Shown here: positions 13,401 to 46,115 of the stretch, one piece after another
Layout of the letters: every line of letters begins with the position of its first letter
Numbering within the stretch: position 1 is the stretch's first letter
Source: Gemmatimonadota bacterium
GTDB taxonomy: Bacteria; Gemmatimonadota; Gemmatimonadetes; Palauibacterales; KS3-K002
DNA: 64,000 nucleotides
Reading direction: 5' to 3'
Assembly: GCA_039586795.1 (NCBI GenBank)
Contig: JBDHJS010000012.1
Span: 16,709 to 80,708 of the forward strand
Program-made: the position numbers and the translations under genes
The notes under the pieces: model-generated
What the model saw: only the letters and a program-made list of their open reading frames with translations
Told to the model about the DNA's origin: nothing
Databases searched by the model: none

Positions 13401-13851
13401 CCCTGCTCACGACGATTTCGTCGGCGCGCTCGTTCACCACGAACACCTCGAGCGGCCCCGGCGGCGGACCCTGAACGACTCGGCCGTTCAGATCGAAGTG
13501 ACCGTTGTGACATGCGCACCAGACGCGGCTGAGATCATCTCGGTATTGAACGATGCACCCAAGGTGCGGGCAGGCGGCGGAAAAGGCGCGCAACTCGCCG
13601 GATGGCGTGCGGACGAGAATGCCCGGCTGGCTGCCGAACCTGAAGATCTGCCCCGAATTCGGCGGGACGTCTTCGGGTCTTATGGAGAGCGTGACCGTTG
13701 CCGATGCTGACTCTCCCGCAGCAGGCGGAATAAGGTACCGTGTCACTGGATAGAGGACGGACAGCACGAGACCACCCAGACTGGTTCCGAGTAGCCAATT
13801 AATGAAGCCACGCCGGCTGTGCTGCCGCGTCGGTTGATTCCTTGAAGCCAT
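13393..13851 (-). CDS. Rieske [2Fe-2S] protein with Tat signal
   Basis: SRRGFI Tat motif, CPHLGC and CACHNG boxes, GPPP loop. Confidence 0.95.
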
Positions 13852-13854
13852 CGC

Positions 13855-16367: not shown

Positions 16368-16448
16368 GATCTCCCTCTACCGTATTAGCTTCGAGTGCAT
16401 AGGCGCATGCGGGGCCAAACTGATATTGTCTCCAGAAGGCGGCCCCTG

Positions 16449-18476: not shown

Positions 18477-18484
18477 GCCGGTTC

Positions 18485-20997: not shown

Positions 20998-21446
20998 CCT
21001 GTTCCTTCCGAAACGTAGACGACACCATCTCTAATCGAGACCCTGTAACGTTTGAGAGCCTGAGTCGTCAGGCCGGCGACAACATCTCCGCGGAGGTCGT
21101 ACACCATGTATCTGCAAGGTGAGAATACAGTAGACGAGTCCGGATCCCAACGGAGGAGGCAGCCATCGACGGGGGAGTCTCCCTGCACCGCAAAGTAGCT
21201 CAGGGAATCGAGTCGAACGATTAGCACGACTTCTTCACCCCAGTTGCGGACACGACTGGCGCCCACGGGAAAATCTGTCTCTCTGGCGACGCGCACGACG
21301 GGTTGAATCTCGGGGATGTTCAGATTCTCCGATGGGTTAACGTAGAAGACCGCGGCCATCGTCCCGAGCGTAAGCATCAGCAGTATCACGCCACCCAGCA
21401 GAAGCTCGGTAAAGCCGAGTCCTGAACTCCAGCTGTCTTTGCTCAT
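20994..21446 (-). CDS. Rieske-fold protein lacking [2Fe-2S] ligands (pseudo-Rieske)
   Basis: Aligns to the 13393 Rieske: CPHLGC->SPVDGC, CACH->SPCR, FDLNG->YDLRG; N-terminal TM without RR; start MSKD after SD AGGAG. Confidence 0.8.
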   Translation of the reverse strand: MSKDSWSSGLGFTELLLGGVILLMLTLGTMAAVFYVNPSENLNIPEIQPVVRVARETDFPVGASRVRNWGEEVVLIVRLDSLSYFAVQGDSPVDGCLLRWDPDSSTVFSPCRYMVYDLRGDVVAGLTTQALKRYRVSIRDGVVYVSEGTG

Positions 21447-21685
21447 TGGGACTCCTGCGGTCTTTGCCGGCACAAGGGAAGGTCTGCTCCAGCCGACATC
21501 CCCTGGTTCGCCGGGGTAATACGACTCGTTTGCTAGATGCCGCGGGGCTAGGCGGTCGCACTATCGATAGGCCTTGGTCTGCTACATTGAGGGAAGGCAT
21601 CGAGCCGCGCAAGGCCTGGCAACCCTTGGTGGTAAGGTGTCATGGTCCTGCTTTCGGTGAGTGTTTGAACGGTTATCTTTAAACT

Positions 21686-23790: not shown

Positions 23791-23890
23791 CCGCCGACCG
23801 ACACCTGCTGTTAGTTAGATCCTCCCAGTATGATCACCCCATGAGATTGACCATCCCGAACGACCGGTGCCCGCCGCGGCGTTGGCTATT

Positions 23891-25015
23891 ATGATGAGCG
23901 ACATGAACCGACGCGACGGCCTGAAGGCCGAGGTGTTGAGCTACATGCGGCGTGGCATAGACGCACCGAAAGACGAAGACGGTTTCCTTCGGCTGGCGCT
24001 GGCGGTTTTCGAATACCAGTTCACGGAGAATGAGCCCTACCGTCGGTACTGCGAGCGGCGACGCGTGACGCCGGACAAAGTCACCGACTGGCGGCGAATC
24101 CCGGCCGTGCCGACCGCCGCATTCAAAGAAGCGGGCTTGATTTGCGGGGGGACTGACAAGGCCGAAATCGTCTTTCGGACCAGCGGCACCAGCCAGGGTC
24201 GAGAGCGGCGCGGCGCCCACTACGTCCGGGACCTCGAGTTATATGAGGCATCCGCGCTCCCAAACTTCGCCGCGCATCTGCTTCCCGATGGTGCGCATCT
24301 CCGCACGTTGGTGCTGGGCCCTAGCTCGAACCTGGCGCAGGATTCATCGCTGTCCTGGATGCTCGATTTGGTACGGTGCACCTATGGAACGGCGGGAAGC
24401 GCCCACTATGTGGATGAGGAAGGATTGCAGGTCGAACGGCTGTTAGGCGAGCTCGAGGGCTGTGAGAAGCAGGGTCGGCCGGTCATGCTGCTAGGCACGG
24501 CCGCGGCATTCGTTCACGTGCTAGACGCGCTGGAGGCACGCCAGCGAACGCTACGCCTTGCTCCGGGCACCCGCTTGATGGAGACTGGCGGCACCAAGGG
24601 GATAGATCATGAGATGCGTCGAGATGAGCTTTACCGCGCGTTGACCAGCCGCCTTGGAGTCTCCGGTCTGTACTGCATCGCCGAGTATGGTATGACGGAG
24701 ATGTGCTCGCAGTTCTACGACAACGTTTTGCGCGAGCGGGCGCGAGCTCGACCGGTGTGGAAGCGCTACAAGACGATACCACCGTGGGTACGCACGCAAG
24801 TGGTCGACGCAGAGTCGCTCGAGCCGGTCGACGACGGAAACGTCGGACTTCTGCGCCATCTCGACCTCGCCAATTTCGATTCGGTGATGGCGATCTTGAC
24901 CGAAGATATTGGCGTTACAGGTAACGGTGGTTTCGAGATCCTCGGCCGAGCGGCCGGCGCTGAGTTGCGTGGCTGCTCGTTGGCAATGTCCCAATGGGTG
25001 AAGACGCAAGAATAG
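23891..25015 (+). CDS. LuxE-family acyl-protein synthetase
   Basis: FRTSGTS, METGGTKG, EYGMTEMCSQFY, TEDIG, GRAAGAELRGCS. Confidence 0.85.
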   Translation: MMSDMNRRDGLKAEVLSYMRRGIDAPKDEDGFLRLALAVFEYQFTENEPYRRYCERRRVTPDKVTDWRRIPAVPTAAFKEAGLICGGTDKAEIVFRTSGTSQGRERRGAHYVRDLELYEASALPNFAAHLLPDGAHLRTLVLGPSSNLAQDSSLSWMLDLVRCTYGTAGSAHYVDEEGLQVERLLGELEGCEKQGRPVMLLGTAAAFVHVLDALEARQRTLRLAPGTRLMETGGTKGIDHEMRRDELYRALTSRLGVSGLYCIAEYGMTEMCSQFYDNVLRERARARPVWKRYKTIPPWVRTQVVDAESLEPVDDGNVGLLRHLDLANFDSVMAILTEDIGVTGNGGFEILGRAAGAELRGCSLAMSQWVKTQE

Positions 25016-26406
25016 AGTTCTATTGGCCGCCCGAGTGGCCGGGCGGCCCGACGAAGCCCGCGCTCCGGTTCGAAGAGCGAGGATTTGGACCCGATCGTGT
25101 CGTGGGTCGGTTCCCACTGCTCGCGACGGAGAGCCTGACTCAGCTGCTCAGCGCGCTCCGGACTCGTGGCGTCGATACATTGCGCCGCTTCACTGTTAGG
25201 GAGATCACCGAGGCGATCGAAGCGGCAACGCGCGAGTTGGTCGAGCCCGGTAAACTGCATCGTCAGGAGCTCGTTGAAACGCTTCCTCGACTTACGGGCT
25301 ACTCGCCGCGGATGATCGAAATCGGGCTCGAGCGGATGGGCGCCAACTGGACCTCGATCGCGCTCCGCGAAGCGCTCGTCAGGGAGTTCGGTAGTCTGGA
25401 GGTGCTGGATGATTTTCAGCCGTGCGGTCAGGGCCGGCACCAGAAAGCCTTCGGCCCCGGGCTCACCGTCCACATCTTTAGCGGCAATATTCCCGGCGTG
25501 GCGGTGACCAGTCTGATCCGGGCTCTCTGTGTGAAGTCGCCGAGTTTTGGAAAAACGGCGGCAGGAGAACCGTATTCAGCCGTGTGCTTCGCTAGAGCAT
25601 TGGCGAGCGTGAGCGCGGACCTGGCGAGTTGTCTTGCGGTTACCTATTGGCCGGGCGGATCGAAGGAATTGGAACGTGCTGCTTTCGCCGCCGCCGATGC
25701 GGTCGTTGCTTACGGGAGCGACGATACCATAGATGAGATTAGCGGTCTCGTACCGTCACATTGTCGGCTTCTCCGGTACCCGAACCGCTTCGGAGTTGCG
25801 GTCATCTCGGGGAAGGCTCTGTCGGAAGGGAGCCCGGCGGAGCTAGCTCTGGCCGTCGCGAAAGATGTCTCGACTTTCGATCAGCAGGGATGTGTGTCGC
25901 CTCATGCCGTGTTCGTCGAAGAGGGAGGAGATGTATCCGCCGTCGACTTCGGCAGGCTGCTGGCCGATGCGATGGAAAGTGTGGCGAAAGAGGTACCGCG
26001 AGGAGCGGCGCGTGTGGAGGAATCGTCTCTCATCCACCAGGTTCGGGGCCAGGCAGAGATGCGTGGCGCCGAGGTGATCACCAGCCACAAGGGGACAGAG
26101 TGGACGGTGATCGTGGAGCGCCGCGACCGGTTCGAGCCGTCGCCGCTCAATCGAGTGATTCACGTCACGGCTGTCGGTGAACTGAACGAAGCGCTGACCG
26201 CTCTGGAGAGCGTGGGCCGCCATCTGCAAACCGTGGCTATCGGCGCGGTGCCGGGGGAAATCGAGGCGCTGGCGGAAAGGCTCGGTTCCATAGGGGCCAC
26301 TCGGCTGGTGCCGGTGGGAGAAGCCGCCTGGCCAGCGGCGGACTGGCGTCACGACGGTCGCTACCAGTTTGCCGATCTGGTTCGCTTCGTCGATCTCGAA
26401 ATATAG
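24994..26406 (+). CDS. LuxC-family acyl-CoA reductase
   Basis: HIFSGNIP, AYGSDDTI, FDQQGCVSP catalytic Cys, HDG near C-terminus. Confidence 0.85.
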   Translation: MGEDARIEFYWPPEWPGGPTKPALRFEERGFGPDRVVGRFPLLATESLTQLLSALRTRGVDTLRRFTVREITEAIEAATRELVEPGKLHRQELVETLPRLTGYSPRMIEIGLERMGANWTSIALREALVREFGSLEVLDDFQPCGQGRHQKAFGPGLTVHIFSGNIPGVAVTSLIRALCVKSPSFGKTAAGEPYSAVCFARALASVSADLASCLAVTYWPGGSKELERAAFAAADAVVAYGSDDTIDEISGLVPSHCRLLRYPNRFGVAVISGKALSEGSPAELALAVAKDVSTFDQQGCVSPHAVFVEEGGDVSAVDFGRLLADAMESVAKEVPRGAARVEESSLIHQVRGQAEMRGAEVITSHKGTEWTVIVERRDRFEPSPLNRVIHVTAVGELNEALTALESVGRHLQTVAIGAVPGEIEALAERLGSIGATRLVPVGEAAWPAADWRHDGRYQFADLVRFVDLEI

Positions 26407-29449: not shown

Positions 29450-31165
29450 TCAGTGTCTTAGAGCAACCACCGAGTATCCGTTCGCGCCGCCCTCCCAGCG
29501 CAGTGCCAGCACAGCCGGACGGCCCACGCGCTCTCCGTTTCGCCAGGCCTCCACCGTCATCGTCGCCGTGTACTCCGAATAGGTCACACCAGCCAGATCT
29601 TCTCTGAGCCCATCGAGGCCAACGCGTAGGGTCTGCCGCGCGCCGTTAATCGCATCGCTGTCCCCGCTGAGCTCGATTCCTTGATAGGTGTCTTGTAGCT
29701 CCCAGCTGTAGCGGGTTTGTCCCGGCGTCCACACGCCAGCATCCAGGCCGAGATCATCGAACGTCAACTCCAGGAATGGCGCGTCCGATCCGACGACCCT
29801 GACGACCGGCCTCTCGAGCGGCGTCACCTCACCGTACCAATACGCAATGATCTTGTCGCGGCGCCCGATCAGCAGCGTCGTAAGAATCTCTTCCGGCTCG
29901 GCTGACGGTAGGCCGCCCGTACGCACTGCGGCACGGATGTGATCGTCGCTGAACTTCGCGATGATCTTTGCGCCCCAGTAGCCGTCCGCTGGTGTCTTGA
30001 GGTTGAATGCCTTGTTAGGCCAGTTGGCGTTCCAGGTGCCAGGATCGAAGCTCTCGGACTGGAACCATCCGATAGACGAGTGATACTGGGAGAACTCGAC
30101 GTCTTCCCAGCCCCTCTTGTAGAAGCCAAGGGTCATGATGCGCCCCAGCGATGGCCACAACGCGAAATTGTATTCACTCCCTTCGCGCGGGTTGTGTGAG
30201 CGAATGGTCCCGCTACCCAACGACGCGGCGAAGTCGATCAGGTAGTGACGGACGAAGCCCGGTGGATCGATGAACGCGTCGAGAGTATTCGCGTACCGCA
30301 TGTCGACATGATTGAGCCAGGACGACACGACGTACAGGCCGCGGAGCTCGCGGCGGTATTCGTGATGGTAATAGTCGTTCGGATCATCACCGCGAACACC
30401 CGAGAAGTAGAAAGGTCCGATAGGTTCACCGGGGACAAACTTGCTGGCCAGAGCTAGATAGCGACCGCCTGAAAGAGTGTCCGTGAGGAAGAGGATGTCT
30501 TTGATGTCCTCCTCCGTCATCGTGCGCTCAACCCCCGAGACTGTGATCTCGGCGCTGGGATCCAGCACCAGCCGTGCCGAATCGAATACCACGATATAGT
30601 CCTCGGGAGTGTGGTATCCGGCGGCGTAAAATAGCCGATTGGCAATCACACCCGCCGCGCTGGCGAGGTGCTGGTTGCCCCTGGGGTCGAACTTGAAAAG
30701 GTAGCGGTCACCGCGCGCATCCTGGATGGTAAAACCGGGCGAGATGCCCGCGGCTTTCCCCCCTATGACCCGGAGCTCGCGAGCAGTGTCGGGTCCGACG
30801 GTCGTCGGCCCGCGAGCGACGTCCTCGGGCGTCATGTTCCCGAGATCGATTCGGTGCTCGTACCAGGCGGAGTTCAGAACGTCGTCGAAGCGAGTGATGT
30901 TCAGCGCCTCGTGGTCCTTACCGACCCAGCGACGCAGGCTGAGCCCGTAGCCTAGCTCGCCTCCCACCGATACGGTGAGTAGCCGTTTGACTTCGTTGAT
31001 TTCCCGGTTGCCGGGGCGAGCGCTGGGCAATGTGTCCGCATAAGCGATCGGCTCGAGGGGGAGCGGGCTTGTGGTCTTTGTAGAGCCGCACGCCGTCAAG
31101 ATGACTGCGCCGACGGCCAGTACCAGTCGACCCGGGTGGCGGTGACCGCGACGTACGTTCCCCAT
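29450..31165 (-). CDS. Lipoprotein with atypical protein-kinase-like motifs
   Basis: ILTAC lipobox; GISPGF, YLFKFD, WLNHVDMRYANT, YLIDFAASLG; start codon overlaps upstream stop (TGATG). Confidence 0.7.
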   Translation of the reverse strand: MGNVRRGHRHPGRLVLAVGAVILTACGSTKTTSPLPLEPIAYADTLPSARPGNREINEVKRLLTVSVGGELGYGLSLRRWVGKDHEALNITRFDDVLNSAWYEHRIDLGNMTPEDVARGPTTVGPDTARELRVIGGKAAGISPGFTIQDARGDRYLFKFDPRGNQHLASAAGVIANRLFYAAGYHTPEDYIVVFDSARLVLDPSAEITVSGVERTMTEEDIKDILFLTDTLSGGRYLALASKFVPGEPIGPFYFSGVRGDDPNDYYHHEYRRELRGLYVVSSWLNHVDMRYANTLDAFIDPPGFVRHYLIDFAASLGSGTIRSHNPREGSEYNFALWPSLGRIMTLGFYKRGWEDVEFSQYHSSIGWFQSESFDPGTWNANWPNKAFNLKTPADGYWGAKIIAKFSDDHIRAAVRTGGLPSAEPEEILTTLLIGRRDKIIAYWYGEVTPLERPVVRVVGSDAPFLELTFDDLGLDAGVWTPGQTRYSWELQDTYQGIELSGDSDAINGARQTLRVGLDGLREDLAGVTYSEYTATMTVEAWRNGERVGRPAVLALRWEGGANGYSVVALRH

Positions 31166-32481
31166 CAGAAGGCCGTCCCGAAGGACACGCGGAGCCGGAA
31201 GCCTTCGTTGCCGAACGCGATGTAGTTGACCAGCGCACCTCCCTGGAGTGTAGACAGACTCCAACCGAAGCCGATACTCCGTCGCATGCCTTTGAGTTGA
31301 ATCTCAAACACACGCGGCGCGATAGAGCCAGAGTCGTAGAAGACAAAGGCTTCAACGCGTGACCTTTCGTGAAGCTCGCGCCAGATCTCCCACCTCCATT
31401 CGAGCATGAACGCGGCCATCGCCTGGTCTCGGAAGCGAAGCTGGTGATACGCGCGACCGCCTTGCTCGCTTCCCACGGTAGCCAGGTAGTAGAAGGGTAC
31501 GCCTTCGCCACCCAGGCTCGTGTTCGATTCCATCGTTAGCCGAAACGCCAGCTGCTGCCGCGGGTTCAAAGGCATGTAGCCAAACAGATTAGCAGATGCA
31601 CGTCCGAAATCGGAATCCGTTTCATCTATGCCGCCGAAGTATTCATAGCCGGCTTCTATATAAAGGCCGCGTGGCTGCAGACCGCGGGTGTATGTAAGGT
31701 CGAGGCCGACTGATCCTCCTACACGGACGTACTTCACCCGCTCGTTCACCCCATAGAGCTGGGAGGATCGAGGGTCGTCCTGAATTGTCGGCACTTTCTT
31801 CGACTTGCCGCGGCCGATGCTGTTGTCCTCCCACGCCAGCTTGCCTGAAACGACGAGTGTCGCGGCCCGATCGACCGGCCGACGGGCCGATCCAGTCAGC
31901 GAGATGGTCCACTGATCCCAGAGAAAGTTGACCCGCTCGTCCTCTCTGGTGTCCAGACCGATGCCGTAGAAGTAGGGCTGGGCGTTCCGCCAGAACGTGG
32001 CCGCGGCTTCCAGCGTTCGACCGTTTGATCCCTGCCACAGGAAACCCGCTCGGTAGCGCTGCGAGAGCCGAATTGAAAACGCGCCTTCGACGAAGAACGG
32101 CCGTAGGCCTTCATAGCCAAGACGCACGGATACGCCGCTGCGCGGACCGATCGTGCCGAAACCTCCCCTTACACCGGCGGCCTTGAGCGTTTCGACGATC
32201 GGGATCGGTTTGGGGTCCGGCTTGACGACAAAGCCGGCTAGCTCGGCGAACCCGAGGCCCAGAAGTCGCAAAGGCAGAATGATGATCTTGAAGGGAAGGG
32301 CGACCGCGTCGACTGCATCGAAAGGTGGTTTCGCCGGTGGACGTTGGAGTGTATCGCGGATTGAATCTGCTACGGCCGGCTTGATTGGCCCATCATTCTG
32401 CTGAGCTTGAGCTGAGCTGATCGGGACGAGAAAGCTCGCCAGGACGATTGCAGCCACCCATATCCCGGGTGTGCCAATCAA
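31165..32481 (-). CDS. Omp85/BamA-TamA-like outer-membrane barrel, apparently without POTRA domains
   Basis: Signal peptide, amphipathic strands, GRAYHQLRFRD (RG[YF]-like loop), FYDSG, terminal F. Confidence 0.7.
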   Translation of the reverse strand: MIGTPGIWVAAIVLASFLVPISSAQAQQNDGPIKPAVADSIRDTLQRPPAKPPFDAVDAVALPFKIIILPLRLLGLGFAELAGFVVKPDPKPIPIVETLKAAGVRGGFGTIGPRSGVSVRLGYEGLRPFFVEGAFSIRLSQRYRAGFLWQGSNGRTLEAAATFWRNAQPYFYGIGLDTREDERVNFLWDQWTISLTGSARRPVDRAATLVVSGKLAWEDNSIGRGKSKKVPTIQDDPRSSQLYGVNERVKYVRVGGSVGLDLTYTRGLQPRGLYIEAGYEYFGGIDETDSDFGRASANLFGYMPLNPRQQLAFRLTMESNTSLGGEGVPFYYLATVGSEQGGRAYHQLRFRDQAMAAFMLEWRWEIWRELHERSRVEAFVFYDSGSIAPRVFEIQLKGMRRSIGFGWSLSTLQGGALVNYIAFGNEGFRLRVSFGTAF

Positions 32482-34751
32482 TCCTTGTCTCCCTTGTCCT
32501 CAAGGAGGTCCTTCAACGCTTCCCTGTGTGTCGCGTCACCGAACAGCGTCGCGCCGGTCTTCATGAGGTCCGACACGACATCGTCGAGGGGTCTCAGCGA
32601 TTTCTCACGCTGATACTCGCTTACGTCACCGATGAACGGCCAGAGTCTCTTTCGCACGTCGGCTGGCAAAGCTTGCTCGAGGTACTCTAGAGAGAAGCTC
32701 TTCAGGTTTTCATCGTCGAGCATCACGCCATTGAACGCGGCCCGCGCAACCTCCGGCTCCATGACCAGGCTCAAGAGACGGAACGTATGTTCGAGGCTCA
32801 GCTCTCCGCGCACGCCGACTCGCTCGGCGACCAGCTCATCTTTCTCGGCAGCATCCAGTAGTTTCTGCATCTCCCAGACAGCGCGGCCTCTGCCGATTTC
32901 GGCGCGCACCGCTTCCCAGATCACCGCGTCACTCCAACGCGGCGATCGGGGCATATCATGTCGGCGGCGACGTACGATGGCGATGGCGGCACGGTAGCGC
33001 ACCTCGAAACGGTTGGCTGCCAGCGCATCGATCAGCGCGTCGTCTGCTTCCTCGCCTCCCATTCGCCCGAGCACCCTTGGAATTCTGCGGCGAATGACGA
33101 AGTCGGTGTGCTCGCTACGAAGCAGCTTCGCCAAGTGTGGAACAGCGATCTCGCCAGCGTCGAGCAAGGAGACGATTGTGCGGTCGACAAGCTGATCACG
33201 GGCGAGCAAACGCGTCAGCGGCGCGACGTGCTCTTCTTGCCAGTCGGTGCCGATATCGAGGACTTGGTTCAGCGCCTTCAGGTCCCCGGACATCAGCGTC
33301 GCCTTGATCGCATCGGCGGCCATGGGTCTCTCGGCGCTTACAGGCGCTTGATCAGCCTCCGTCTCTTGGGTTAGAGCGCCCTCACGGACCAGTGAGCGAA
33401 CATCGATGCGGGTAAACGTTCCGCTCAAAAGATCCCTGCTCTCGAGTCGCGCACCAGAGTCTTTGGCCTGTACTCGCGTCCCGCTTTCCTGCAACTGTTC
33501 GGTTACGGTTGCGAAGTACTGACTTCCCATCCTTCGACTGAGGTAGACCAGGGCTAAAGAGAACGCGATGATGAACAGGGAAAGGAAGCGCGAATGGAGA
33601 CCGAGCAACGTGACCACTCCGAACACGATGCCAGCACCGAGACCTTCGCCGACCGAATCAACCACCGAATCGATGAACGTCTTCGTCTTTCGACGAACGA
33701 TCGACGGGATCGGGACGTAGACCACCTCTAGTGCGGAGCGATACAGCGACTTTCGGAGCGCTGCGTCGGCTCCGCGGACGGCTGTGATCAGGAACAGACT
33801 GGGGGCGACCAGCATACCGACAGAGCCCGTCAGGAGCACTGCTGGCAGCACTGCAAGAGTCCAGGCGATGCCGGCAAGCGCGAGGAAACGGGATACGAGC
33901 AGCAGTTGGATCACCAACGACACGCCACCTACCCAGCCGTAGAAGGCGCCGAAGAAGCTCGCCATTCCTTCCTGCGTGGTGAAGCTGTTCTGGGCGAACT
34001 CCTTGAATTGATAGTCGAGTAAGGTCGTGGCTATCGCGACGGCGAACACGATCGCGGCCAGCGTCCGTAGATGTGGTGTGTCCCAGGTCAACTTGAGGCT
34101 CTCGGGAATCGATGTCCTCGCTTTGTCGTCACCTTCGTGTCCGGCGCCTGTAAGCGGAGGAAGCAGACTCTGCGCAATGAAGAACAGTCCGATGATCGCG
34201 ATGAGGAGAATGACCAACCAAGGGAGATCGAGTCGCCGCGTCAGCCAGACCAGCGAATTGCCCGTCACCATTGTACCCGCTGTGCCACCGGCGCCGATCA
34301 ACCCGAATAGACGCTTGGCACCACGTACGGCGAAGTACTCGGAGATCACCACCCAAAATCCAGAAGTGAGGAGTAGGGTTCCGAGCGCCGTCAACAAATA
34401 GAACGCAACGACTTCTGCTCCCGGCACATTGCTGCGACCGAGGAACGGCCAGATAAGCGCGAGCCCAGCGGAGAGCGCGATCTGAACTGCCATCACGACC
34501 TTGCGTGGCGAGTAGCGCAAGAGCAGCCGCGCAAACAGCCCCACGGTCGGTACGCTGATGACCGCCACGGCCGCGATGATGTATGGGAGCGTCTTTACGT
34601 CGTAGGCAGTAAGGTAAAGCGCCTCGCGCATCGCCCGTGCCAGGATGGCGAAGCTCATGACAAGAAAGGCGCCCCAAAACGCGAGCGTCACGTTGCGAAC
34701 TTCGTTCGGGCGTACGTCGAGCCAGGCGGAAAGTCGCTGGAGCACGGTCAC
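32478..34751 (-). CDS. Npt/TLC-like (ATP/ADP translocase family) MFS transporter fused to HEAT-like repeats
   Basis: About 12 TM; DVRPNE, AKRLFGLIGAG, DYQFK, KTKTFID; C-terminal helical repeats (IRRRIPRVL...RFEVRYRAA). Confidence 0.75.
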   Translation of the reverse strand: MTVLQRLSAWLDVRPNEVRNVTLAFWGAFLVMSFAILARAMREALYLTAYDVKTLPYIIAAVAVISVPTVGLFARLLLRYSPRKVVMAVQIALSAGLALIWPFLGRSNVPGAEVVAFYLLTALGTLLLTSGFWVVISEYFAVRGAKRLFGLIGAGGTAGTMVTGNSLVWLTRRLDLPWLVILLIAIIGLFFIAQSLLPPLTGAGHEGDDKARTSIPESLKLTWDTPHLRTLAAIVFAVAIATTLLDYQFKEFAQNSFTTQEGMASFFGAFYGWVGGVSLVIQLLLVSRFLALAGIAWTLAVLPAVLLTGSVGMLVAPSLFLITAVRGADAALRKSLYRSALEVVYVPIPSIVRRKTKTFIDSVVDSVGEGLGAGIVFGVVTLLGLHSRFLSLFIIAFSLALVYLSRRMGSQYFATVTEQLQESGTRVQAKDSGARLESRDLLSGTFTRIDVRSLVREGALTQETEADQAPVSAERPMAADAIKATLMSGDLKALNQVLDIGTDWQEEHVAPLTRLLARDQLVDRTIVSLLDAGEIAVPHLAKLLRSEHTDFVIRRRIPRVLGRMGGEEADDALIDALAANRFEVRYRAAIAIVRRRRHDMPRSPRWSDAVIWEAVRAEIGRGRAVWEMQKLLDAAEKDELVAERVGVRGELSLEHTFRLLSLVMEPEVARAAFNGVMLDDENLKSFSLEYLEQALPADVRKRLWPFIGDVSEYQREKSLRPLDDVVSDLMKTGATLFGDATHREALKDLLEDKGDKD

Positions 34752-34937: not shown

Positions 34938-36611
34938 TTAGATGGAGGGCCCCAAGGGAGACGCCGACGGATTAGACGCACTCAAGGGGGTCTCTTCCTC
35001 AGGCCGGATTTCGGGCTCGGGAAACATGCACTGGTCATCCTGGGCCTGCGACTCCACGATGCCATGAAGGTCCCACCACTCTTCGGCTCGATCGCTATTC
35101 CAGGCATTGGCTACCGGTACCGCCTCGAGCGCGAGGCGCATCTGTCGAGCGGTCTGAAAACGGTCTCCCGGCTTCTTTTCGAGACACTTCATCACGATTT
35201 CTTCCAACGCCGGCGGAACGGCGGTCTCGGTCACTTCGGACAACGGTTTAGGGGCGGTCTTAACATGGTCGACCACAACCTCCAGACTCGATTCTGAGAC
35301 GAAGGGCGGTCGACCGGCTAGCATCCAGTAGGCGACGCCGCCAAGACAGTAGAGGTCGGCTCGCCCGTCCACCTGCTCCGTCCCGTACACGGTCTCGGGT
35401 GCCAGGAACCGCGGGGTCCCGAACAAGATGCCTGTCTTGGTCACTGCGGCTGCCGTGTCAGCACCGATCTGTTTGGCCAGACCGAAGTCGAGAACCTTGA
35501 CGAAATCATACAGCCCGCCACGCCGAGTCAGAAAGATGTTGGATGGCTTGATATCGCGATGAATGATATTGCGGTCGTGGGCTTCGCTCAGAGAGCCGCA
35601 TACCTGTCTCAGGATGTAGATTGTCCGAGCTGGCGAAACGGGCCCGTACGTGTCCACCAGCTTCTGGAGATCCAAGCCCAACAGGTACTCCATTGCATAA
35701 TAGAGACCGTAGTCTGGCGTGCGACCGACGTCGTAGATCGTGATCGTGTTCGGGTGCGTCAGCGTCGCCGACAGCTTCACCTCACGTTCGAAACGGGCCA
35801 GTGCCGTGTGACTCCCATCTTCTGCTGCGGTCATCACCTTTACGGCCGTCGGTCGACACATCAGCGCGTGTTGAGCAAAGTACACCACCCCCATTCCGCC
35901 CTTGCCGATCTCGTCATGGATGATGTACTTGCCCAGCCTCCTCGCTCGGTGCGCGGTCTTCGTCAGGTTGTAAAGCGTGTGGCTCACGAACGCCGAGGCA
36001 CCGCCCAGCATCGCGATTCCGATCAGTCCCCAGATCATATTGTCGCGCGCAGCGTCAGCACCGCCCAGCTTCGCCCAGAAGGCCTGATACTCAGGCAGGG
36101 CGGAATAAAGCGTGCCGTGGAGCAGCAGATAGAAAACCGCCGCCAGCGCGGCCAGCGACCACTGATGGGACGGCCGCCAGGGAACGAACGCTGCCGTGAG
36201 AAACAGCAGCAACGACACCCCAAGGTCGGGCTGGCCGGCAGGATTGAATGCACCCTGGTTGTAGATGACGAGCAGAATGTTGAACGCGATCGTACCAAAG
36301 GCGATGGTGTGCAGAAACCGATAGCTGCTCCTACAGACCGAATAGAGCAAGCCGAGAGCGATCGCGAAGGATATGGTGTGTGCCAATGCACCGGTCAGCC
36401 ACCGGTAACCATCGAGCGTGCTTCCTAGCTCGAGACTCTGCTGTGGGAAGAGAACATTCAAGATCAGAGCGATCGAAGCGATCACCAGGCCGCTGATGAA
36501 GAGCAGGCGGCAACGCTCCCACAGCAATCGCAGTCGTTCGTCTTCGAAGGAGCCGGAAGTCGAGAAGGGCCCGGATAGCGCGCGCTCAATGACCTGACTG
36601 GGCGTGGCCAT
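34938..36611 (-). CDS. Hanks-type Ser/Thr kinase with N-terminal multi-TM domain
   Basis: GKGGMGVVY, AVK, HRDIKPSN, DFG, GTPRFLAPE. Confidence 0.95.
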   Translation of the reverse strand: MATPSQVIERALSGPFSTSGSFEDERLRLLWERCRLLFISGLVIASIALILNVLFPQQSLELGSTLDGYRWLTGALAHTISFAIALGLLYSVCRSSYRFLHTIAFGTIAFNILLVIYNQGAFNPAGQPDLGVSLLLFLTAAFVPWRPSHQWSLAALAAVFYLLLHGTLYSALPEYQAFWAKLGGADAARDNMIWGLIGIAMLGGASAFVSHTLYNLTKTAHRARRLGKYIIHDEIGKGGMGVVYFAQHALMCRPTAVKVMTAAEDGSHTALARFEREVKLSATLTHPNTITIYDVGRTPDYGLYYAMEYLLGLDLQKLVDTYGPVSPARTIYILRQVCGSLSEAHDRNIIHRDIKPSNIFLTRRGGLYDFVKVLDFGLAKQIGADTAAAVTKTGILFGTPRFLAPETVYGTEQVDGRADLYCLGGVAYWMLAGRPPFVSESSLEVVVDHVKTAPKPLSEVTETAVPPALEEIVMKCLEKKPGDRFQTARQMRLALEAVPVANAWNSDRAEEWWDLHGIVESQAQDDQCMFPEPEIRPEEETPLSASNPSASPLGPSI

Positions 36612-36657: not shown

Positions 36658-38298
36658 CTACGGTTCGTAGATGAACTGGGACAATCCTCGGTTCGACATG
36701 CCGTCGTCGTCTACCGATGGGGCTGCCGGCGGACCTTCCGTCGCCAACCCGTGCAGCTCCCACCATTCGTGGGCTCGTTTCTGTGACCACCGCTCCGAGA
36801 ACGGGATGCCTTTCAGCGCCTCCTCCAGTTCGGCCGCCGACTGGAAGCGTTTCTCCGGCTCCTTTTCCAGGCAGCGCATGATGGCGCTCTCCAAATCGGG
36901 ATGTACGGGGAGCTCGGTGACGCTGGACGGACGAGTCGGGATGGCCTTCATGTGGTCGATGAGCAACTCGACGGAAGACGTGGAGTCGAACACGGGGCGG
37001 CCGGTGGTGATGAAATACATGACCGCACCGAGGCAGTAAATGTCGGATCGTCCGTCGACTTCCAGCCCCTGAACTGCTTCCGGCGAAATGTATCGCGGCG
37101 TGCCCACGGCCATCCCGGTCTTGGTCAGGCTCACGGCCTCGGGGGCGGTAACCTGCTTGGCCAGCCCGAAGTCCAGGACCTTTACGTAGTCGAACAGGCC
37201 GCCCCGGTGAGTCAAGTAGATGTTGCCCGGCTTGATATCGCGGTGGATGATCCCTCGCTCGTGGGCTTCGCTGAGCGCGCTGCACGCTTGGGCGATGACG
37301 TACGCCGTGCGCTCGGAGCTTATCGGTCCGAAGCGATCCACCAGTTCCTGCAGGTCGAGGCCGTCGAGGAACTCCATCACATAGTAGAACTTGTTGTCGG
37401 GAGTATGGCCGAAATCGTAGATCGTGATGGTGTTTGGGTGCGTCAGCGTCGCCGATAGCTGAACCTCGCGCTCGAAGCGTCGGATCGCTGATGCCTCCTC
37501 CTCGCCGGACGCTTGCATCACCTTGACCGCGGTCGGGCGACGGATCAGGGAGTGCCGGGCACGAAACACCTGGCCCATGCCTCCACTTCCCAGTTCTTCC
37601 TCGACCACGTAGTTGCCGAGTCGACTGGCCTCGTGGGTCTTCACGCGCAGGCGGTACAAGGTCCGGCTCGCGACATAGGCAACGAATCCGAGCATCATGA
37701 TGCCCGTCGTTCCCACTATGATATGATTGCGCAACGCCGCCAGTTCGCTGATCCCGATGACGCCACCAACGTCCGACCAGAACGTTCGGGCATCGGGGAC
37801 AAGGATATACGTAACGGTCGCCGATACAACGAACGCGGCGACGGCCAGGACTCCCAGCATGACAGGGTAGTGAGCGGGCGACGGGATGAAGACTGCGTAG
37901 ATGAACAGCGCCAGGGCCGCAGCCAGGTAAGGCTCCTCCGCGGTCGCGGTCGAGGCAAGCATGAACGTGCTGATTACGAGGGCCGAGGCGATGATCCAGA
38001 ACGCCAGCTGCTGCAGCTGGCGTGCACTGCCCTGCAGCAACCACGTCAGGCCGAGCCCGACGAGAAAGATCGCGATCTGAGCCAGGCGGATCTTGGGTTC
38101 GTGGACGGTCAGGCCAGCATCTGGCAGCGTCGCGGGTATCTGCAGGAAACGATCGAACAGGAAGTTGCCGGCAACCAGCAGCAGGACGATCACGAGCGCC
38201 AGGCGCGTCCTGTACAACAACAGGTCGCGCAGCTCTTTGTCGAACGAACTGCTGGTCAGCACCGACTCCGGGGTCGCGACTGCGAAATTGGTGTTCAT
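36658..38298 (-). CDS. Hanks-type Ser/Thr kinase with N-terminal multi-TM domain (tandem paralog)
   Basis: GSGGMGQVF, AVK, HRDIKPGN, DFG, GTPRYISPE. Confidence 0.95.
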   Translation of the reverse strand: MNTNFAVATPESVLTSSSFDKELRDLLLYRTRLALVIVLLLVAGNFLFDRFLQIPATLPDAGLTVHEPKIRLAQIAIFLVGLGLTWLLQGSARQLQQLAFWIIASALVISTFMLASTATAEEPYLAAALALFIYAVFIPSPAHYPVMLGVLAVAAFVVSATVTYILVPDARTFWSDVGGVIGISELAALRNHIIVGTTGIMMLGFVAYVASRTLYRLRVKTHEASRLGNYVVEEELGSGGMGQVFRARHSLIRRPTAVKVMQASGEEEASAIRRFEREVQLSATLTHPNTITIYDFGHTPDNKFYYVMEFLDGLDLQELVDRFGPISSERTAYVIAQACSALSEAHERGIIHRDIKPGNIYLTHRGGLFDYVKVLDFGLAKQVTAPEAVSLTKTGMAVGTPRYISPEAVQGLEVDGRSDIYCLGAVMYFITTGRPVFDSTSSVELLIDHMKAIPTRPSSVTELPVHPDLESAIMRCLEKEPEKRFQSAAELEEALKGIPFSERWSQKRAHEWWELHGLATEGPPAAPSVDDDGMSNRGLSQFIYEP

Positions 38299-38501: not shown

Positions 38502-39941
38502 ATGAGTGAAATCATGCGCAGGGGAAGTCTCCAAATTGTCTTGAGTCTTGTCATACTTGCTCTGATTGCGCCGTCCCATGCCAATGCCCAGAGTCGCGAC
38601 AGGGCGTTGGAAGCGCTTGCGGGGCTCAGCGCGTCCTTCGAGGCGCTCTCCGAGAAAGTGAATCCCGCCGTCGTGCAAATCCTTGCCAGGGGCTATGCGC
38701 CGTTGCAGGCGACGGATGCGCCAGGCGGGGGCTTGATAACCCGACGCAGCGTTGGCGGTTCGGGCGTCATACTGGACCCCGACGGATACATCGTCACCAA
38801 CCTCCACGTGATCGAAGGCGCCACCAACATCCAGGTCCGACTGGCCACGCCGGCCGAAGACGCACCGCCCGGCGAATCCGTCCTCAAACCGGCAGGGAAA
38901 CTGGTGGGTGCCTCAGTTGTGGGCATCGACCGCGAGACCGACCTGGCGGTGCTCAAGGTGAACGAACGGAATCTGGCCTTCTTGCCGCTGGGAGACTCGG
39001 AGGAGATTCGGAAAGGTCAGTTGGTGTTCGCATTTGGCAGTCCGCTCGGGCTGGAGAACTCGGTCTCGATGGGTGTTGTCAGTGCGGTGGCCCGGCAGCT
39101 GCGGTCCGAAGACCCGATGATCTATATCCAGACCGATGCGCCGATAAACCCGGGGAACAGCGGAGGTCCGCTGGTCGATCCGCAAGGCAGTGTAGTCGGT
39201 ATCAACACGATGATCATCTCGCAGTCGGGTGGCAGCGAGGGACTCGGGTTCGCCGCGCCGGCCAATATCGTTCGGAACGTCTTCAACCAGATCAGGAACA
39301 CGGGGTACGTCAGGCGCGGCGAGATTGGGGTACACAGCCAGACGCTGACCCCGACTCTCGCGGCCGGGCTCGGGCTCAGCCGCGATTGGGGTGTGGTTCT
39401 GGGAGATGTCTATCCGAACAGCCCGGCGGAGCAGGCCGGCCTGCTCGTTGGTGACATCATCTTGACGATGGACGGCAAGGTGATGGAGAACGGCCGTCAG
39501 ATGCGAGTCAATCTGTACGGTCGGCCCGTTGGTGAGCGAGTCGTGCTCGAGGTGTTGCGTGGCCAGGAGAGACTGACCATCAACGTCACGGTCTACGAGC
39601 GTGAGAACGATGCGAATCGGTTCACGACGCTCGTGACTCCGGAAGAGAACCTCGTGGAGCGACTCGGCATCCTGGGGGTAGATCTGAATCCGCAAATCGC
39701 GACGATGCTTCCGGGGCTGCGGACGCCCAACGGTGTCGTGGTGGCTGCCCGGGCTCCCGATTCGACCTCAGGTCAGGTTGGACTGCAGCCGGGCGATGTC
39801 ATCCACGCTGTTAACGGCCAACCTGTGACGACGCTGGCCGAACTCCGTCGGATCTTGAACAGCTTCGCCGTAGGTGAAGCAACCGTGCTTCAGGTCGGGC
39901 GGCAGGGAAGATTGATGTTCGTCGCGTTCGCGATGGAGTAG
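38502..39941 (+). CDS. degP: DegP/HtrA serine protease with two PDZ domains
   Basis: TNLHV, TDLAVLK, QTDAPINPGNSGG; two PDZ-like segments. Confidence 0.92.
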   Translation: MSEIMRRGSLQIVLSLVILALIAPSHANAQSRDRALEALAGLSASFEALSEKVNPAVVQILARGYAPLQATDAPGGGLITRRSVGGSGVILDPDGYIVTNLHVIEGATNIQVRLATPAEDAPPGESVLKPAGKLVGASVVGIDRETDLAVLKVNERNLAFLPLGDSEEIRKGQLVFAFGSPLGLENSVSMGVVSAVARQLRSEDPMIYIQTDAPINPGNSGGPLVDPQGSVVGINTMIISQSGGSEGLGFAAPANIVRNVFNQIRNTGYVRRGEIGVHSQTLTPTLAAGLGLSRDWGVVLGDVYPNSPAEQAGLLVGDIILTMDGKVMENGRQMRVNLYGRPVGERVVLEVLRGQERLTINVTVYERENDANRFTTLVTPEENLVERLGILGVDLNPQIATMLPGLRTPNGVVVAARAPDSTSGQVGLQPGDVIHAVNGQPVTTLAELRRILNSFAVGEATVLQVGRQGRLMFVAFAME

Positions 39942-39954
39942 TCTGGCCTATCGA

Positions 39955-42102
39955 TCACCGGGTGTTGACGCGGTCTTGGAAGGCCACAGCCATCGTCGGC
40001 GCGAGCTTCCCGGAATCGCTGGCGCTAGAGTCGCGCCTGGCGTCGATATCCTCAAACTTCGCCGGATGAGAGTCCCACCACATCCGAGCCTCTGTAACGC
40101 CCCAGTTGCCAGCGTCGGAGCAGGCGGCCAAAGCATCGGCCAGCGCCTGCGCCGTCGCCGGGCGCTTCCCTCTATCCTTCTCGAGGCACGTCAGGACCAG
40201 TTGCTCCAGGTCTCCCGATACCGCGCGGTCTATGCGACTCGAGGGGGTGTCCGGCACGCTGGTGAGGTGGTGGCTAAAGACTTCGAGCGGAGTGTCTCCG
40301 TCAAAAACGTGGCTTCCGGTGAGTAGATAGTAGCCGACGGCGCCAAGACAGTAGAGATCGCTTCGCGCATCCGCGTCATCCGGTGTCTTTATCGATTCGG
40401 GTGCAACGTAGAGCGGAGTACCCGTCACCGAGCCGACAGCCGTTATCGACAGGTCGGAGCCCTCGCCGACTTCCTTGACGAGGCCGAAATCCAGAACCTT
40501 GACTACATCGAAGACGCCGCCGCGTTCGCACAACATGATGTTCGACGGCTTGACGTCTCGATGAATGATACCGGCATCGTGAGCCTCGGCGAGCGATGCA
40601 CACGCTTGCCCGAGTATGTGGATGACACGCGCCTCGGGCTGCGGGCCGTGCTGCAGGACCAGGCGGTCGAGCGTGTAGCCGGGGAGATATTCCATCGCGT
40701 AGTAGAAGATCCCGTCCGGCGTTCTCCCGAAATCGTAGATCTCGATCGTGTTGGGGTGGGTTAGCTCGCTGGTCGCCTGGACCTCGCGCTCGAATCGAGC
40801 GACCGCCTCCTCGCTCGAGGCCTCTTCGGGCAACAGTTTGACCGCGGTCGGTCGACGAAGCATGGCGTGACTGGCGCGGTAGACCGATCCCATCCCGCCC
40901 TGACCGATCTTCTTCTGTAGCGTGTATTGGCCGAGTCGCTCGGCGCGGTCGGCCGTCTTCCGCAGATTCCGAATGATGAAGTACGAGGTGAGGATTCCGA
41001 AAGCGCTGATCGCGAGAGCGGAGATCAGGATGAGGAACGCGCGCTTCAGTGCGTTCAGCGTCGCGTACGCTTCTTCGGCGTCGACTTCTGTGGCCACGCC
41101 GAATCCATATTCGGGTAGCCAGGTCCACGCTCCAACGACTGGTACGCCGCGGTAGTCGTTGTATCCGTCGACGTCGACGCCGGATTCCCCTTGCACGGCG
41201 GACGCTGCCATTCTCGTTAACGGTTGCGCACCCCGGAATGTCGTCGGGTGATGGCCCCGCACCATGTTTCCGCCAGGGTCGCGAATATGCACGCGAAGTA
41301 TCGACTTGGAGTTGGGATCGTCAGCGATCAACCCGATGGCCCGGAGTTCATCGTCGAAGCGGCTTTCTGATATCAGGAGTCCGTCGGAGTTGAACGCGTA
41401 AGTTTCTCCGCTCTCTCCGTAGCGTGCCGTGCGCAGGATCTCCGTGAACTGCTCTTCTGGGTCGATTCTGAACGCCAGCCCGGCGATGATGTTGCCCTCT
41501 TCATCGCGCACCGGCGCTCCAACCACCATCGTCGATGCGCCCGGCTGCACCACTCCGTCCCGGTCTCTTAGCGGCACTTCAGAGATGTACGGTTGAGAAA
41601 TCCCGGCCACGCCAGAGTTGAACCACGTGTTGAATAGTGACAGCAGGTTGGTAACATGTAGCCCGACGGCATCATCGTAGCGAGCGGCGACGACCGTTCC
41701 TGTCAGATCGATCACTCCATAACCGATGTAACGATTGGCCTGTACCAGCGGATCGATGTGCTCCCGTAACGCTTCCAGTGCAGGCGCCGAGACCAGCGCG
41801 TCGGTAGAGACGGGGCGGCGCTGGGCTTCGGCGACCAGCGCGGATACGTACTCGCGAACGTGTCCCTCCTCGACAGCTACGCTGGCCACGTTGATCTGTG
41901 ATTCGAGGAAGACCCTGAGCGCCGTGACGTCTGCGTCCAGTATGGTCTGCAGGTCCTCAGCAATAGCCGTCTTCAGCGAGTCATTGAGAGTCTTGTAGGC
42001 CCACCAGCCGATGGCGCCCTGCAAGGGGATCGCCAGGGCGAGTATGGTCGCGATGACGACCGGTCGCGACCAGGCGGTCCTGCTCTTGTGTCTTCGACTC
42101 AT
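39955..42102 (-). CDS. Ser/Thr kinase with periplasmic Cache-like sensor domain
   Basis: TM-periplasmic domain (GESGETY...ESRF...DYRGVPVVGAW)-TM-kinase (HRDVKPSN, DFG, GTPLYVAPE). Confidence 0.9.
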   Translation of the reverse strand: MSRRHKSRTAWSRPVVIATILALAIPLQGAIGWWAYKTLNDSLKTAIAEDLQTILDADVTALRVFLESQINVASVAVEEGHVREYVSALVAEAQRRPVSTDALVSAPALEALREHIDPLVQANRYIGYGVIDLTGTVVAARYDDAVGLHVTNLLSLFNTWFNSGVAGISQPYISEVPLRDRDGVVQPGASTMVVGAPVRDEEGNIIAGLAFRIDPEEQFTEILRTARYGESGETYAFNSDGLLISESRFDDELRAIGLIADDPNSKSILRVHIRDPGGNMVRGHHPTTFRGAQPLTRMAASAVQGESGVDVDGYNDYRGVPVVGAWTWLPEYGFGVATEVDAEEAYATLNALKRAFLILISALAISAFGILTSYFIIRNLRKTADRAERLGQYTLQKKIGQGGMGSVYRASHAMLRRPTAVKLLPEEASSEEAVARFEREVQATSELTHPNTIEIYDFGRTPDGIFYYAMEYLPGYTLDRLVLQHGPQPEARVIHILGQACASLAEAHDAGIIHRDVKPSNIMLCERGGVFDVVKVLDFGLVKEVGEGSDLSITAVGSVTGTPLYVAPESIKTPDDADARSDLYCLGAVGYYLLTGSHVFDGDTPLEVFSHHLTSVPDTPSSRIDRAVSGDLEQLVLTCLEKDRGKRPATAQALADALAACSDAGNWGVTEARMWWDSHPAKFEDIDARRDSSASDSGKLAPTMAVAFQDRVNTR

Positions 42103-42330
42103 GTAGCGCCTCGAGATGGAGAGTGCCGGAAAAGAGAAGCTATCACGAGGCGTGAGTGATCATCAAGCGTGGGACGGAATGCGGCGCCGTAAACAGATGT
42201 TTGAACGGCGCTCGCTTCGCCCGACCACTCGCCCCATTATTGCTCATTCTCGTACAGACATTCTCGACGACGCCGCACCCCGCACCCCGCTCTCGCGGCG
42301 CGCCGAAGCCAACTCGTCCCGGGAGGAACC

Positions 42331-42879
42331 ATGTCACTCGTATCCCTCTGGCTGCCGACTCTCGTCTCGGCGGTGATCGTTTTCTTCGCCGCTTTCGTGG
42401 CCTGGACCATTCTGCCTCACCATCGCTCCGATTGGGTCTCTATCCCGAATGAGGAGTCGCTGCTGAGCGCCATCCGCAGCCTGGGGTTGGGCCGCGGCCA
42501 GTACGTCTTCCCCCACGCGATGACGCCCGAAGGCCAGAAGGCGGAAGGCGCGAAAGAGAAGATCGAGGAAGGCCCGGTGGGCTCGTTGATCATTCGGCCG
42601 GCGCCCAACATGGGACGAAGTCTCATGCAGTACTTCGTATTCTGCCTCGGCGTGTCTCTCATGGTCGGCTACGTCGGGTATGTGGCGATCGAACCCGGCG
42701 CCGAATACCTGCACGTCTTCAGGTTGCTGGGTACGGTCGCGTTCCTGGCGTACAGCGCGGCCGCGATACCGGCGGGGATCTGGTTCGGCCACACGTGGAG
42801 CAGCGTCTGGAAGAGCGTGATCGACGGCCTCGTGTTTGGGCTGCTTACCGGCGGCGTATTCGGTTGGCTCTGGCCGTAG
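42331..42879 (+). CDS. Hypothetical membrane protein (4 TM)
   Basis: SD GGAGG; LPHHRSDW...YVFP; hydrophobic helices. Confidence 0.8.
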   Translation: MSLVSLWLPTLVSAVIVFFAAFVAWTILPHHRSDWVSIPNEESLLSAIRSLGLGRGQYVFPHAMTPEGQKAEGAKEKIEEGPVGSLIIRPAPNMGRSLMQYFVFCLGVSLMVGYVGYVAIEPGAEYLHVFRLLGTVAFLAYSAAAIPAGIWFGHTWSSVWKSVIDGLVFGLLTGGVFGWLWP

Positions 42880-42974
42880 CGCTGGGCGCAACACCGCTGG
42901 CGGAGCGCCTGGTGGGCGCGTACGATTAGCCCGCTCCAGTCAGCACAATGCCATTACTCTACGGAGGGACTGTT

Positions 42975-46115
<3,141 letters not shown>

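Follow-up and report, generated by a model that had tools for sequence, protein, structure and literature searches.

An operon for an NTT-HEAT carrier, a POTRA-less Omp85 barrel and an exported atypical kinase: a candidate envelope phosphorylation module in Gemmatimonadota and other phyla

Described relatives of the three components

Carriers of the NTT (TLC/Npt) family with a C-terminal HEAT region are known from free-living bacteria, in which NTT-HEAT and NTT-HEAT-cNBD fusions were described by Major, Embley and Williams in 2017 (PMC5381601). In the sections of that paper drawn on here, the fusions are functionally uncharacterised, roles in ATP uptake, thylakoids or heterocysts are proposed, and the main text names no exported kinase, barrel or phosphatase among the neighbors of NTT-HEAT. 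Here we describe a three-gene operon that encodes such a carrier together with an outer-membrane barrel and an exported lipoprotein kinase. It is located on 64,000 nucleotides of contig JBDHJS010000012.1 (positions 16,709 to 80,708, assembly GCA_039586795.1) of a Gemmatimonadota bacterium, and this whole stretch is called the window below. The window carrier shares the NTT core and the C-terminal HEAT region with the published fusions but has no fused or adjacent cyclic-nucleotide (cNMP)-binding domain (Pfam scan of the window) and is accompanied by serine/threonine (Ser/Thr) kinases instead. A functional link between the carrier and the barrel-associated kinase is well supported by genomics, and the module is real, conserved, present in several phyla, and apparently undescribed. 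The first-pass annotation of this DNA had likewise treated the pathway as not known to be described, and no description was found in the open-access literature, a scope outside which most subscription journals fall.

POTRA-less barrels are also found in the noNterm and Metallo subfamilies of Omp85 (Heinz and Lithgow 2014, PMC4104836; PMC11358297), which their authors consider alike in the passages concerned. The word "kinase" is absent from the main texts of both papers. The window barrel differs from the described noNterm type by its pairing with a kinase, and in Metallo-Omp85 proteins a kinase-fold domain is located between the PF00149 domain and the barrel. In the relevant parts of the Omp85 papers the PF00149 domain is called a metalloprotease, whereas Pfam lists it as a phosphoesterase.

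Fam20C (the Golgi casein kinase), Fam20B, CotH, CtkA, PI4KII, and HipA-type kinases have the same fold as the one predicted for the window lipoprotein (Z 10-14, root-mean-square deviation (rmsd) of ~4 Å, 9-12% identity), which differs from them in being a bacterial lipoprotein with no sequence-level match, an immunoglobulin (Ig)-like tail, and an Omp85 partner. Kinases with CtkA-, Fam20-, PI4KII-, and CotH-type folds act on proteins, lipids, and sugars, and Fam20 kinases, being extracytoplasmic, depend on a carrier for their ATP. By analogy, the module may work like Golgi Fam20 and its ATP carrier, although its sequence does not place it in the Fam20 family.

The carrier belongs by profile to the same family as the plastid, chlamydial, and rickettsial ATP/ADP translocases (AtNTT1, 9j3n), with the first-helix basic pair and the KxKxxID motif kept, but three of four tested charged residues are changed and a HEAT tail is added. 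As the host appears to be free-living, the proposed direction of transport is outward. That the periplasm normally lacks an ATP supply, as the first-pass annotation had stated, holds only in part: a 2020 review, in the sections drawn on, reports micromolar ATP in the periplasm of E. coli, which has no ATP/ADP translocase, with the route not established (PMC7432876). The question is thus one of the supply route rather than of total absence. The parts of the module are known separately, namely the NTT-HEAT fusions, the noNterm and Metallo Omp85 proteins, and the atypical kinase fold.

The operon and its occurrence across genomes

The operon consists of the following genes:

29450..31165, minus strand: exported atypical kinase lipoprotein, 571 aa (lipobox and predicted fold; no Pfam or NCBIfam match)
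31165..32481, minus strand: POTRA-less Omp85-family outer-membrane barrel of the noNterm type, 438 aa with signal peptide (Pfam Omp85, NCBIfam NF047779)
32478..34751, minus strand: NTT (TLC/Npt-family) inner-membrane carrier with a short HEAT-repeat tail, 757 aa, no cNMP-binding domain (Pfam TLC, HEAT_2)

Together the three genes occupy exactly 29450-34751 and are joined by stop/start overlaps of 4 bases and then 1 base, which agrees with the overlapping codons of the first-pass annotation. Its other assignments (a TLC/Npt-like carrier with a HEAT-like tail, an Omp85-like barrel without POTRA domains, and a lipoprotein with kinase-like motifs) also stood, as detailed below.

The start proposed for the lipoprotein by the ORF finder (TTG 31264) was rejected in favor of ATG 31165 as the likely start, because this codon overlaps the barrel's stop codon and opens a lipoprotein signal (lipobox LTA-C26, Cys26). 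The signal is followed by a kinase domain at about residues 120-450 and an Ig/fibronectin type III (FnIII)-like domain at about 445-567. The Fam20C, CotH, and HipA_2 Pfam models do not match the protein, searches of the PDB with its sequence and with its 125-sequence profile returned nothing, and a faint HipA_2 match (E 0.07) appeared in one of 12 homologues. Its AlphaFold2 model (pLDDT 92.9, pTM 0.92), however, matched CtkA in VIA-align with Z 14.2 and an rmsd of 3.9 over 224 aligned residues, followed over roughly residues 120-450 by Hydra Fam20 (Z 12.8), PI4KII (Z 12.4), and CotH (Z 12.0), and Ig/FnIII folds matched residues 445-567; Foldseek agreed with VIA-align. The kinase-like motifs are thus backed by a kinase fold in the predicted structure, so that the lack of such a fold, named in the first-pass annotation as grounds for refutation, does not apply. 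In the alignment from the loci, K158 is found in 119, D160 in 123, D288 in 118, N293 in 119, and D311 in 122 of 124 sequences, and with H286 included each is retained in 117-123 of the 124. Assigned by motif position rather than by residue-level structural alignment, K158 is the beta-3 Lys, D288 and N293 are the catalytic-loop Asp and Asn, and D311 is the metal-binding Asp. We read the lipoprotein as an active kinase that may act on a protein, lipid, or glycan; PAP2 neighbors keep a lipid among the candidate substrates. The unnamed family comprises 2435 clusters at 50% identity (E up to 0.001), and of the 127 full-length proteins among the best 150 homologues, 59 show a lipobox pattern and most others a signal peptide, as judged by pattern or eye rather than by SignalP.

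Family members of about 1160 aa (P0128, P0151-P0156) have a C-terminal half without a Pfam match; in six proteins of 1158-1176 aa, retrieved in a search for longer forms, the extra half also matched none of the barrel, NTT, and HEAT profiles. A third kinase-like family of signal-peptide-bearing proteins (330-410 aa), distantly related to the lipoprotein, occurs with several members per genome; those at L189:8132-9121 (+), L189:10585-11829 (-), and L190:9235-10275 (-) have no adjoining barrel or NTT.

The barrel matches Pfam Omp85 with 24.8 bits (cut-off 24, E 1.9e-5) and NF047779 with E 1.3e-11, and its profile matches the BamA barrel (E 2e-9), the BamA matches being confined to the barrel region. 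Pfam and NCBIfam scans found no POTRA domain, which sets it apart from BamA, TamA, and TpsB; by sequence, its 438 residues hold no other large N-terminal domain either, as in the noNterm type. Arg349 in loop 6 is invariant across 51 sequences. A second short Omp85 protein of similar type is encoded elsewhere in the host genome (G000:C57, L206:8978-10126 (+)), with no kinase-family gene adjoining.

The carrier, with ~10 hydrophobic segments, matches Pfam TLC with 46.9 bits (cut-off 21, E 2.3e-12). Its tail is just below the cut-off of HEAT_2 (26.7 versus 27.7 bits, E 7e-6) and scores 0.95 against HEAT clusters in Atlas features. The carrier profile matches the solved NTT1 chains 9j3n (E 4.9e-40) and 9j3j (E 4e-34), but with a TIGR00769 score of 44.3, far below the cut-off of 387, it is not a canonical family member.

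The linkage of the three genes was followed in four sets of loci: the best 80 of 573 genome loci (set 1), in which the closest named loci to that of the window's kinase are from Gemmatimonadota; 20 of 56 matches from the phylum of the Zixibacteria-labelled L092, chosen for long contigs (set 2); 18 strong matches from the phylum of the Terriglobia-labelled L098 (set 3); and 10 matches from an even sample of Gemmatimonadota (set 4). Two loci occur in two of the sets, and related genomes are not independent samples. Where there was room, the barrel gene was directly upstream of the kinase gene in 69 of 72, 20 of 20, 18 of 18, and 10 of 10 loci, respectively, and L082, which accounts for one of the three exceptions, does have the barrel but its kinase gene is split. 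Among loci extending 5 kb or more to either side of the kinase, an NTT or its HEAT tail was found in 15/37, 16/20, 7/16, and 3/6, compared with a chance expectation of ~1.4% for 20 kb taken at random from the window's own genome. Lack of conservation of the triad would have refuted the first-pass proposal and was not observed, as the association of carrier, barrel, and kinase recurs across phyla; the fixed unit, however, is the barrel with the kinase, whereas the carrier gene often has another genomic location. Scoring of 7993 candidates revealed no protein in which this kinase family is fused to a barrel, although this argues only weakly that such fusions do not exist. The exported phosphatases predicted near the triad were found as well, a metallophosphoesterase or PAP2 gene being present in 13/37, 18/20, 3/16, and 1/6 of the same loci (profiles seeded from Pfam-confirmed neighbors). 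By eye, these module phosphatases show signal peptides or lipoboxes. The Pfam scan found no phosphatase gene in the window's own operon.

The side on which the carrier gene is found and its orientation vary between lineages (upstream, downstream, convergent, or divergent), the phyla together showing at least six gene orders, and this variation points to repeated selection of the link between carrier and module. The kinase itself is patchy, being found in 14/121 Gemmatimonadota genomes and in 56/201 and 30/121 genomes of the L092 and L098 phyla (tallies that include a few weak matches and, in the last, the unpublished G292). Among the evenly sampled Gemmatimonadota, NTT matches reaching E<=1e-20 occur in 12 of the 13 genomes in which the kinase match is strong and in 14 of the 107 others, a comparison that leaves out the unpublished G417, contains kin that are not independent, and at this cut-off misses divergent carriers such as those of the kinase-negative genus discussed below. 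In five genomes whose kinase locus has no carrier close by, NTT genes are present at other sites, and in four of the five these include a long open frame of HEAT-fused size. In one Terriglobia locus, a polyphosphate kinase 2 gene directly follows the module's NTT (L104:13829-14659 (+)).

HEAT-fused carriers of more than 650 aa in the gathered loci (two duplicates dropped) are of a long and a short type. A cNMP-binding domain is fused or adjacent to 25/25 long and 1/16 short carriers, and a Ser/Thr kinase is encoded within 2 kb of 0/25 long and 11/16 short carriers, so that the tie between the carrier and its upstream Ser/Thr kinases is conserved in the type to which the window carrier belongs. 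In trees built from the sequences gathered in the present analysis, the short carriers split into two clades. Residues T445, T732, and T735 of the window carrier are Ser or Thr in 22, 23, and 22 of 23 short-type carriers. This linkage pattern fits the proposed gating of the HEAT tail by phosphorylation, for which the evidence is gene linkage only.

A further line of evidence came from the carrier side. Examination of the short NTT-HEAT loci in eight published kinase-negative Gemmatimonadota genomes showed that, in six of them, the carrier's gene run also encodes a Ser/Thr kinase, a plain NTT, and a fusion of Omp85 with a kinase domain of a second family; of the remaining two, one has its Omp85 end cut by a contig edge and one has neither. 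A separate metallophosphoesterase is also part of the gene run in L307 and L308. The model of this second kinase domain, as encoded in the genome of the window's host (pLDDT 93.8), matches CotH with Z 15.1 and an rmsd of 3.8 over 244 aligned residues, and HHalign probabilities of 51% and 25% indicate only a remote relation to the lipoprotein. The strongest argument for a carrier that serves a barrel-associated kinase is that two distant kinase families, one separate from its barrel and one fused to it, are each tied to short NTT-HEAT. The second domain also forms the unannotated middle of the ~1230-aa Metallo-Omp85 proteins (P0157-P0276). The barrel profile matched 114/114 Metallo-type proteins, whereas the lipoprotein kinase profile matched the middle domain in 0/114 at E<1e-3, and the two kinases are therefore treated as separate families. 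The window's host also has a system of the second family on C105, in which a fusion of signal peptide, kinase, and Omp85 (864 aa) is accompanied by genes for a small outer-membrane barrel and a metallophosphoesterase (L207:1363-3957 (+), L212:10864-12066 (+)), with no NTT within the 20 kb examined around the fusion.

A proposed outward nucleotide supply and its alternatives

From the sequences, we hold with moderate confidence that the most likely mechanism is one in which ATP is carried outward to a kinase active in the envelope. NTT carriers would deliver nucleoside triphosphate from the cytoplasm and retrieve the diphosphate, the transport being performed either by the HEAT-fused carrier itself or together with a plain NTT whose gene lies at another site of the host genome. 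The lipoprotein kinase would be brought to the outer membrane and work at the periplasmic face of the barrel, a placement suggested by the position of the POTRA domains in BamA and by the fusion of the second kinase family at the same place. There it would phosphorylate an envelope substrate (protein, lipid, or glycan), and an exported phosphatase would undo the phosphorylation. The HEAT tail would be the control point, addressed by Ser/Thr kinases in the short subtype and by cNMP-binding and two-component proteins in the long subtype. We are evenly divided on the broader proposal that many diderms run a regulated envelope phosphorylation cycle, in which two kinase families are docked at POTRA-less Omp85 barrels, phosphatases reverse their action, and NTTs work outward under regulation.

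Several observations weigh against this mechanism. The sections drawn on of PMC4256464 name K155, E245, E385, and K527 as residues that matter in AtNTT1, K527 being thought important for triphosphate transport. Mapped by hand on the 9j3n profile alignment, in which a single offset of 84 fits all four, they correspond to I59, A122, D246, and E369 of the window carrier, and with three of the four lost, ATP export by this carrier itself is uncertain. At the helix-C acid position the window kinase has Gly172, where the family has Glu in 83 and Asp in 27 of 125 sequences. No NTT was found in 22 of the 37 long loci of set 1 or in any of the 80 Metallo-Omp85 metagenome loci (L216-L295), many of which are on short contigs; one of the 80 has a HEAT-cNMP end ~9 kb away. 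Common neighbors of Metallo-Omp85 in these 80 loci are an SdiA-regulated protein (51), an HD-PycTM membrane protein (46), polyphosphate kinase 1 (22), and an 800-aa protein without a family name, and such neighbors leave room for other phosphoryl supplies. In one genus, NTT-HEAT-cNMP adjoins response regulator and histidine kinase genes in five genomes that lack the kinase; no kinase was found in these loci, and the second-family query was negative in the three of them tested. Finally, in one genome of the window's own genus (L021 / L041:7273-8652) the carrier has large internal gaps, reflecting either decay or an assembly error, while the barrel and kinase are intact; this genome also lacks the two adjacent Ser/Thr kinases.

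The carrier residues bear on a first alternative, in which the module is real but the HEAT-fused carrier imports or senses a product (ADP, AMP, or NAD) and signals through its tail to Ser/Thr kinases or two-component proteins, whereas ATP arrives by a plain NTT or another route. The Glu at the K527 position and the loss of K155 and E245 speak for this, as does the distribution of the Lys, which is retained in one plain-NTT clade of module operons (L092, L099, L117, L151-L153, L176, L187) and in some long fused carriers but not in the short type; a partner NTT may thus do the export. The host's own plain NTT, on C31 at about 42060-43463, groups with other module-linked plain NTTs that lack this Lys. 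Many module operons elsewhere hold two NTTs each, and fused carriers always adjoin signaling genes, even where there is no kinase. In the window's operon family, on the other hand, the fused carrier is the only NTT of the operon and its gene overlaps that of the barrel, and according to the parts of PMC4256464 concerned, NTT substrates are not predictable from sequence and equivalents of these residues are shifted in other NTTs. We regard an importing or sensing carrier as rather unlikely.

A second alternative assigns the barrel the task of moving the kinase to the cell surface, following the PlpD-type idea, where it would use external ATP or act on surface or foreign targets while NTTs salvage periplasmic nucleotides. 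Heinz and Lithgow allow for surface delivery of the N-terminal enzyme domains of Omp85 proteins, in the sections drawn on (PMC4104836); the Ig/FnIII-like C-terminus of the kinase and the Metallo-Omp85 loci without a nearby NTT would suit such a role. The barrel has no POTRA domain, however, and for a kinase at the surface there would be no need to conserve a carrier in the inner membrane whose tail is regulated, a link that two distant kinase families keep. Surface delivery appears improbable to us.

Less probable still is a role of this clade's lipoprotein in gating the barrel as a pseudokinase or nucleotide sensor, without phosphotransfer. Such a role could be argued from Gly172 and from His166, both in place of acidic residues common in the family, and from the absence of a phosphatase gene in the window's operon; loss of the equivalent Glu makes Fam20A a pseudokinase. 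The catalytic-loop and metal-binding residues are nevertheless retained in 118-122 of 124 sequences, and the acid at position 172 is gone in at least three separate clades that keep all else and still have phosphatases in their operons, which lowers the pseudokinase reading. The invariant D160 may stand in for the helix-C acid. A chance adjacency of two unrelated units (carrier with Ser/Thr kinase, barrel with kinase), for which one could cite their separation in several Gemmatimonadota genomes (L196-L199) and the 50 Ser/Thr kinases of the genome, is highly improbable and largely refuted by the locus counts of the four sets, the recurrence of the link in no fewer than six gene orders in different phyla, and the carrier-side test with the second kinase family.

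Surrounding genes and biological meaning

Upstream of the operon, the window encodes the following proteins:

34938..36611, minus strand: membrane Ser/Thr kinase 1, N-terminal membrane segments and C-terminal Hanks-type domain (Pkinase E 1.4e-43)
36658..38298, minus strand: membrane Ser/Thr kinase 2, a paralogue of kinase 1 (Pkinase E 2e-47)
38502..39941, plus strand: HtrA/DegP-type protease, divergent from the Ser/Thr kinases (Trypsin_2 and PDZ)

The two membrane Ser/Thr kinases, reported upstream on the same strand in the first-pass annotation, are recovered here with 5-6 hydrophobic segments each and gaps of 186 and 46 bases. Two Ser/Thr kinase genes precede the carrier in several genomes of the same family (L022, L023, L028, L032, L033), and relatives of kinase 1 that share its membrane domain adjoin short NTT-HEAT even where the barrel and kinase are unlinked (L196-L198). 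Ser/Thr kinase 1 is a probable regulator of the carrier, in a host genome with about 50 Ser/Thr kinases. The HtrA protease is probably an accessory member of the module: relatives with 52-58% identity are found in module loci of distant lineages (L112, L297, L300, L310, L312, L317), compared with 34-35% for the HtrA paralogues of its own genome. A promoter scan remained at chance level (2 found versus 2.0 expected), and the single RNA run (share 0.07, contigs only) yielded short pieces of low depth, from which neither transcription nor habitat can be read.

Elsewhere in the window, overlapping genes for a LuxE-like acyl-protein synthetase and a LuxC-like acyl-CoA reductase (23867-26406 (+)) lie convergent with an EamA transporter gene, with no luciferase gene among the neighbors in the Pfam scan. 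Clustered genes for cytochrome b and multiheme cytochromes c (12294-21473 (-)) suggest a large electron-transfer complex, and two further Ser/Thr kinases are encoded at 39955-42102 (-) and 46362-47633 (+), one of them with a dCache sensor domain.

The module bears on the route by which ATP reaches the periplasm (PMC7432876) and on the function of NTT-HEAT carriers, which has been lacking since 2017 (PMC5381601). It names a candidate carrier, a candidate consumer of ATP outside the cytoplasm, phosphatases that would reverse the reaction, and candidate regulatory threonines (T445, T732, and T735), and it places a kinase domain within an already described subfamily of Omp85 proteins, one that many Bacteroidota have, cultured genera included. 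If the proposed mechanism is true, the NTT-HEAT clade would gain a function, the Metallo-Omp85 proteins would be recast as phosphatase-kinase-barrel fusions, and bacteria would have a parallel to the Golgi Fam20 kinases with their ATP carrier. Taken at this strength, the finding suggests, but does not prove, that the envelope of some free-living bacteria is supplied with nucleotides for phosphorylation.

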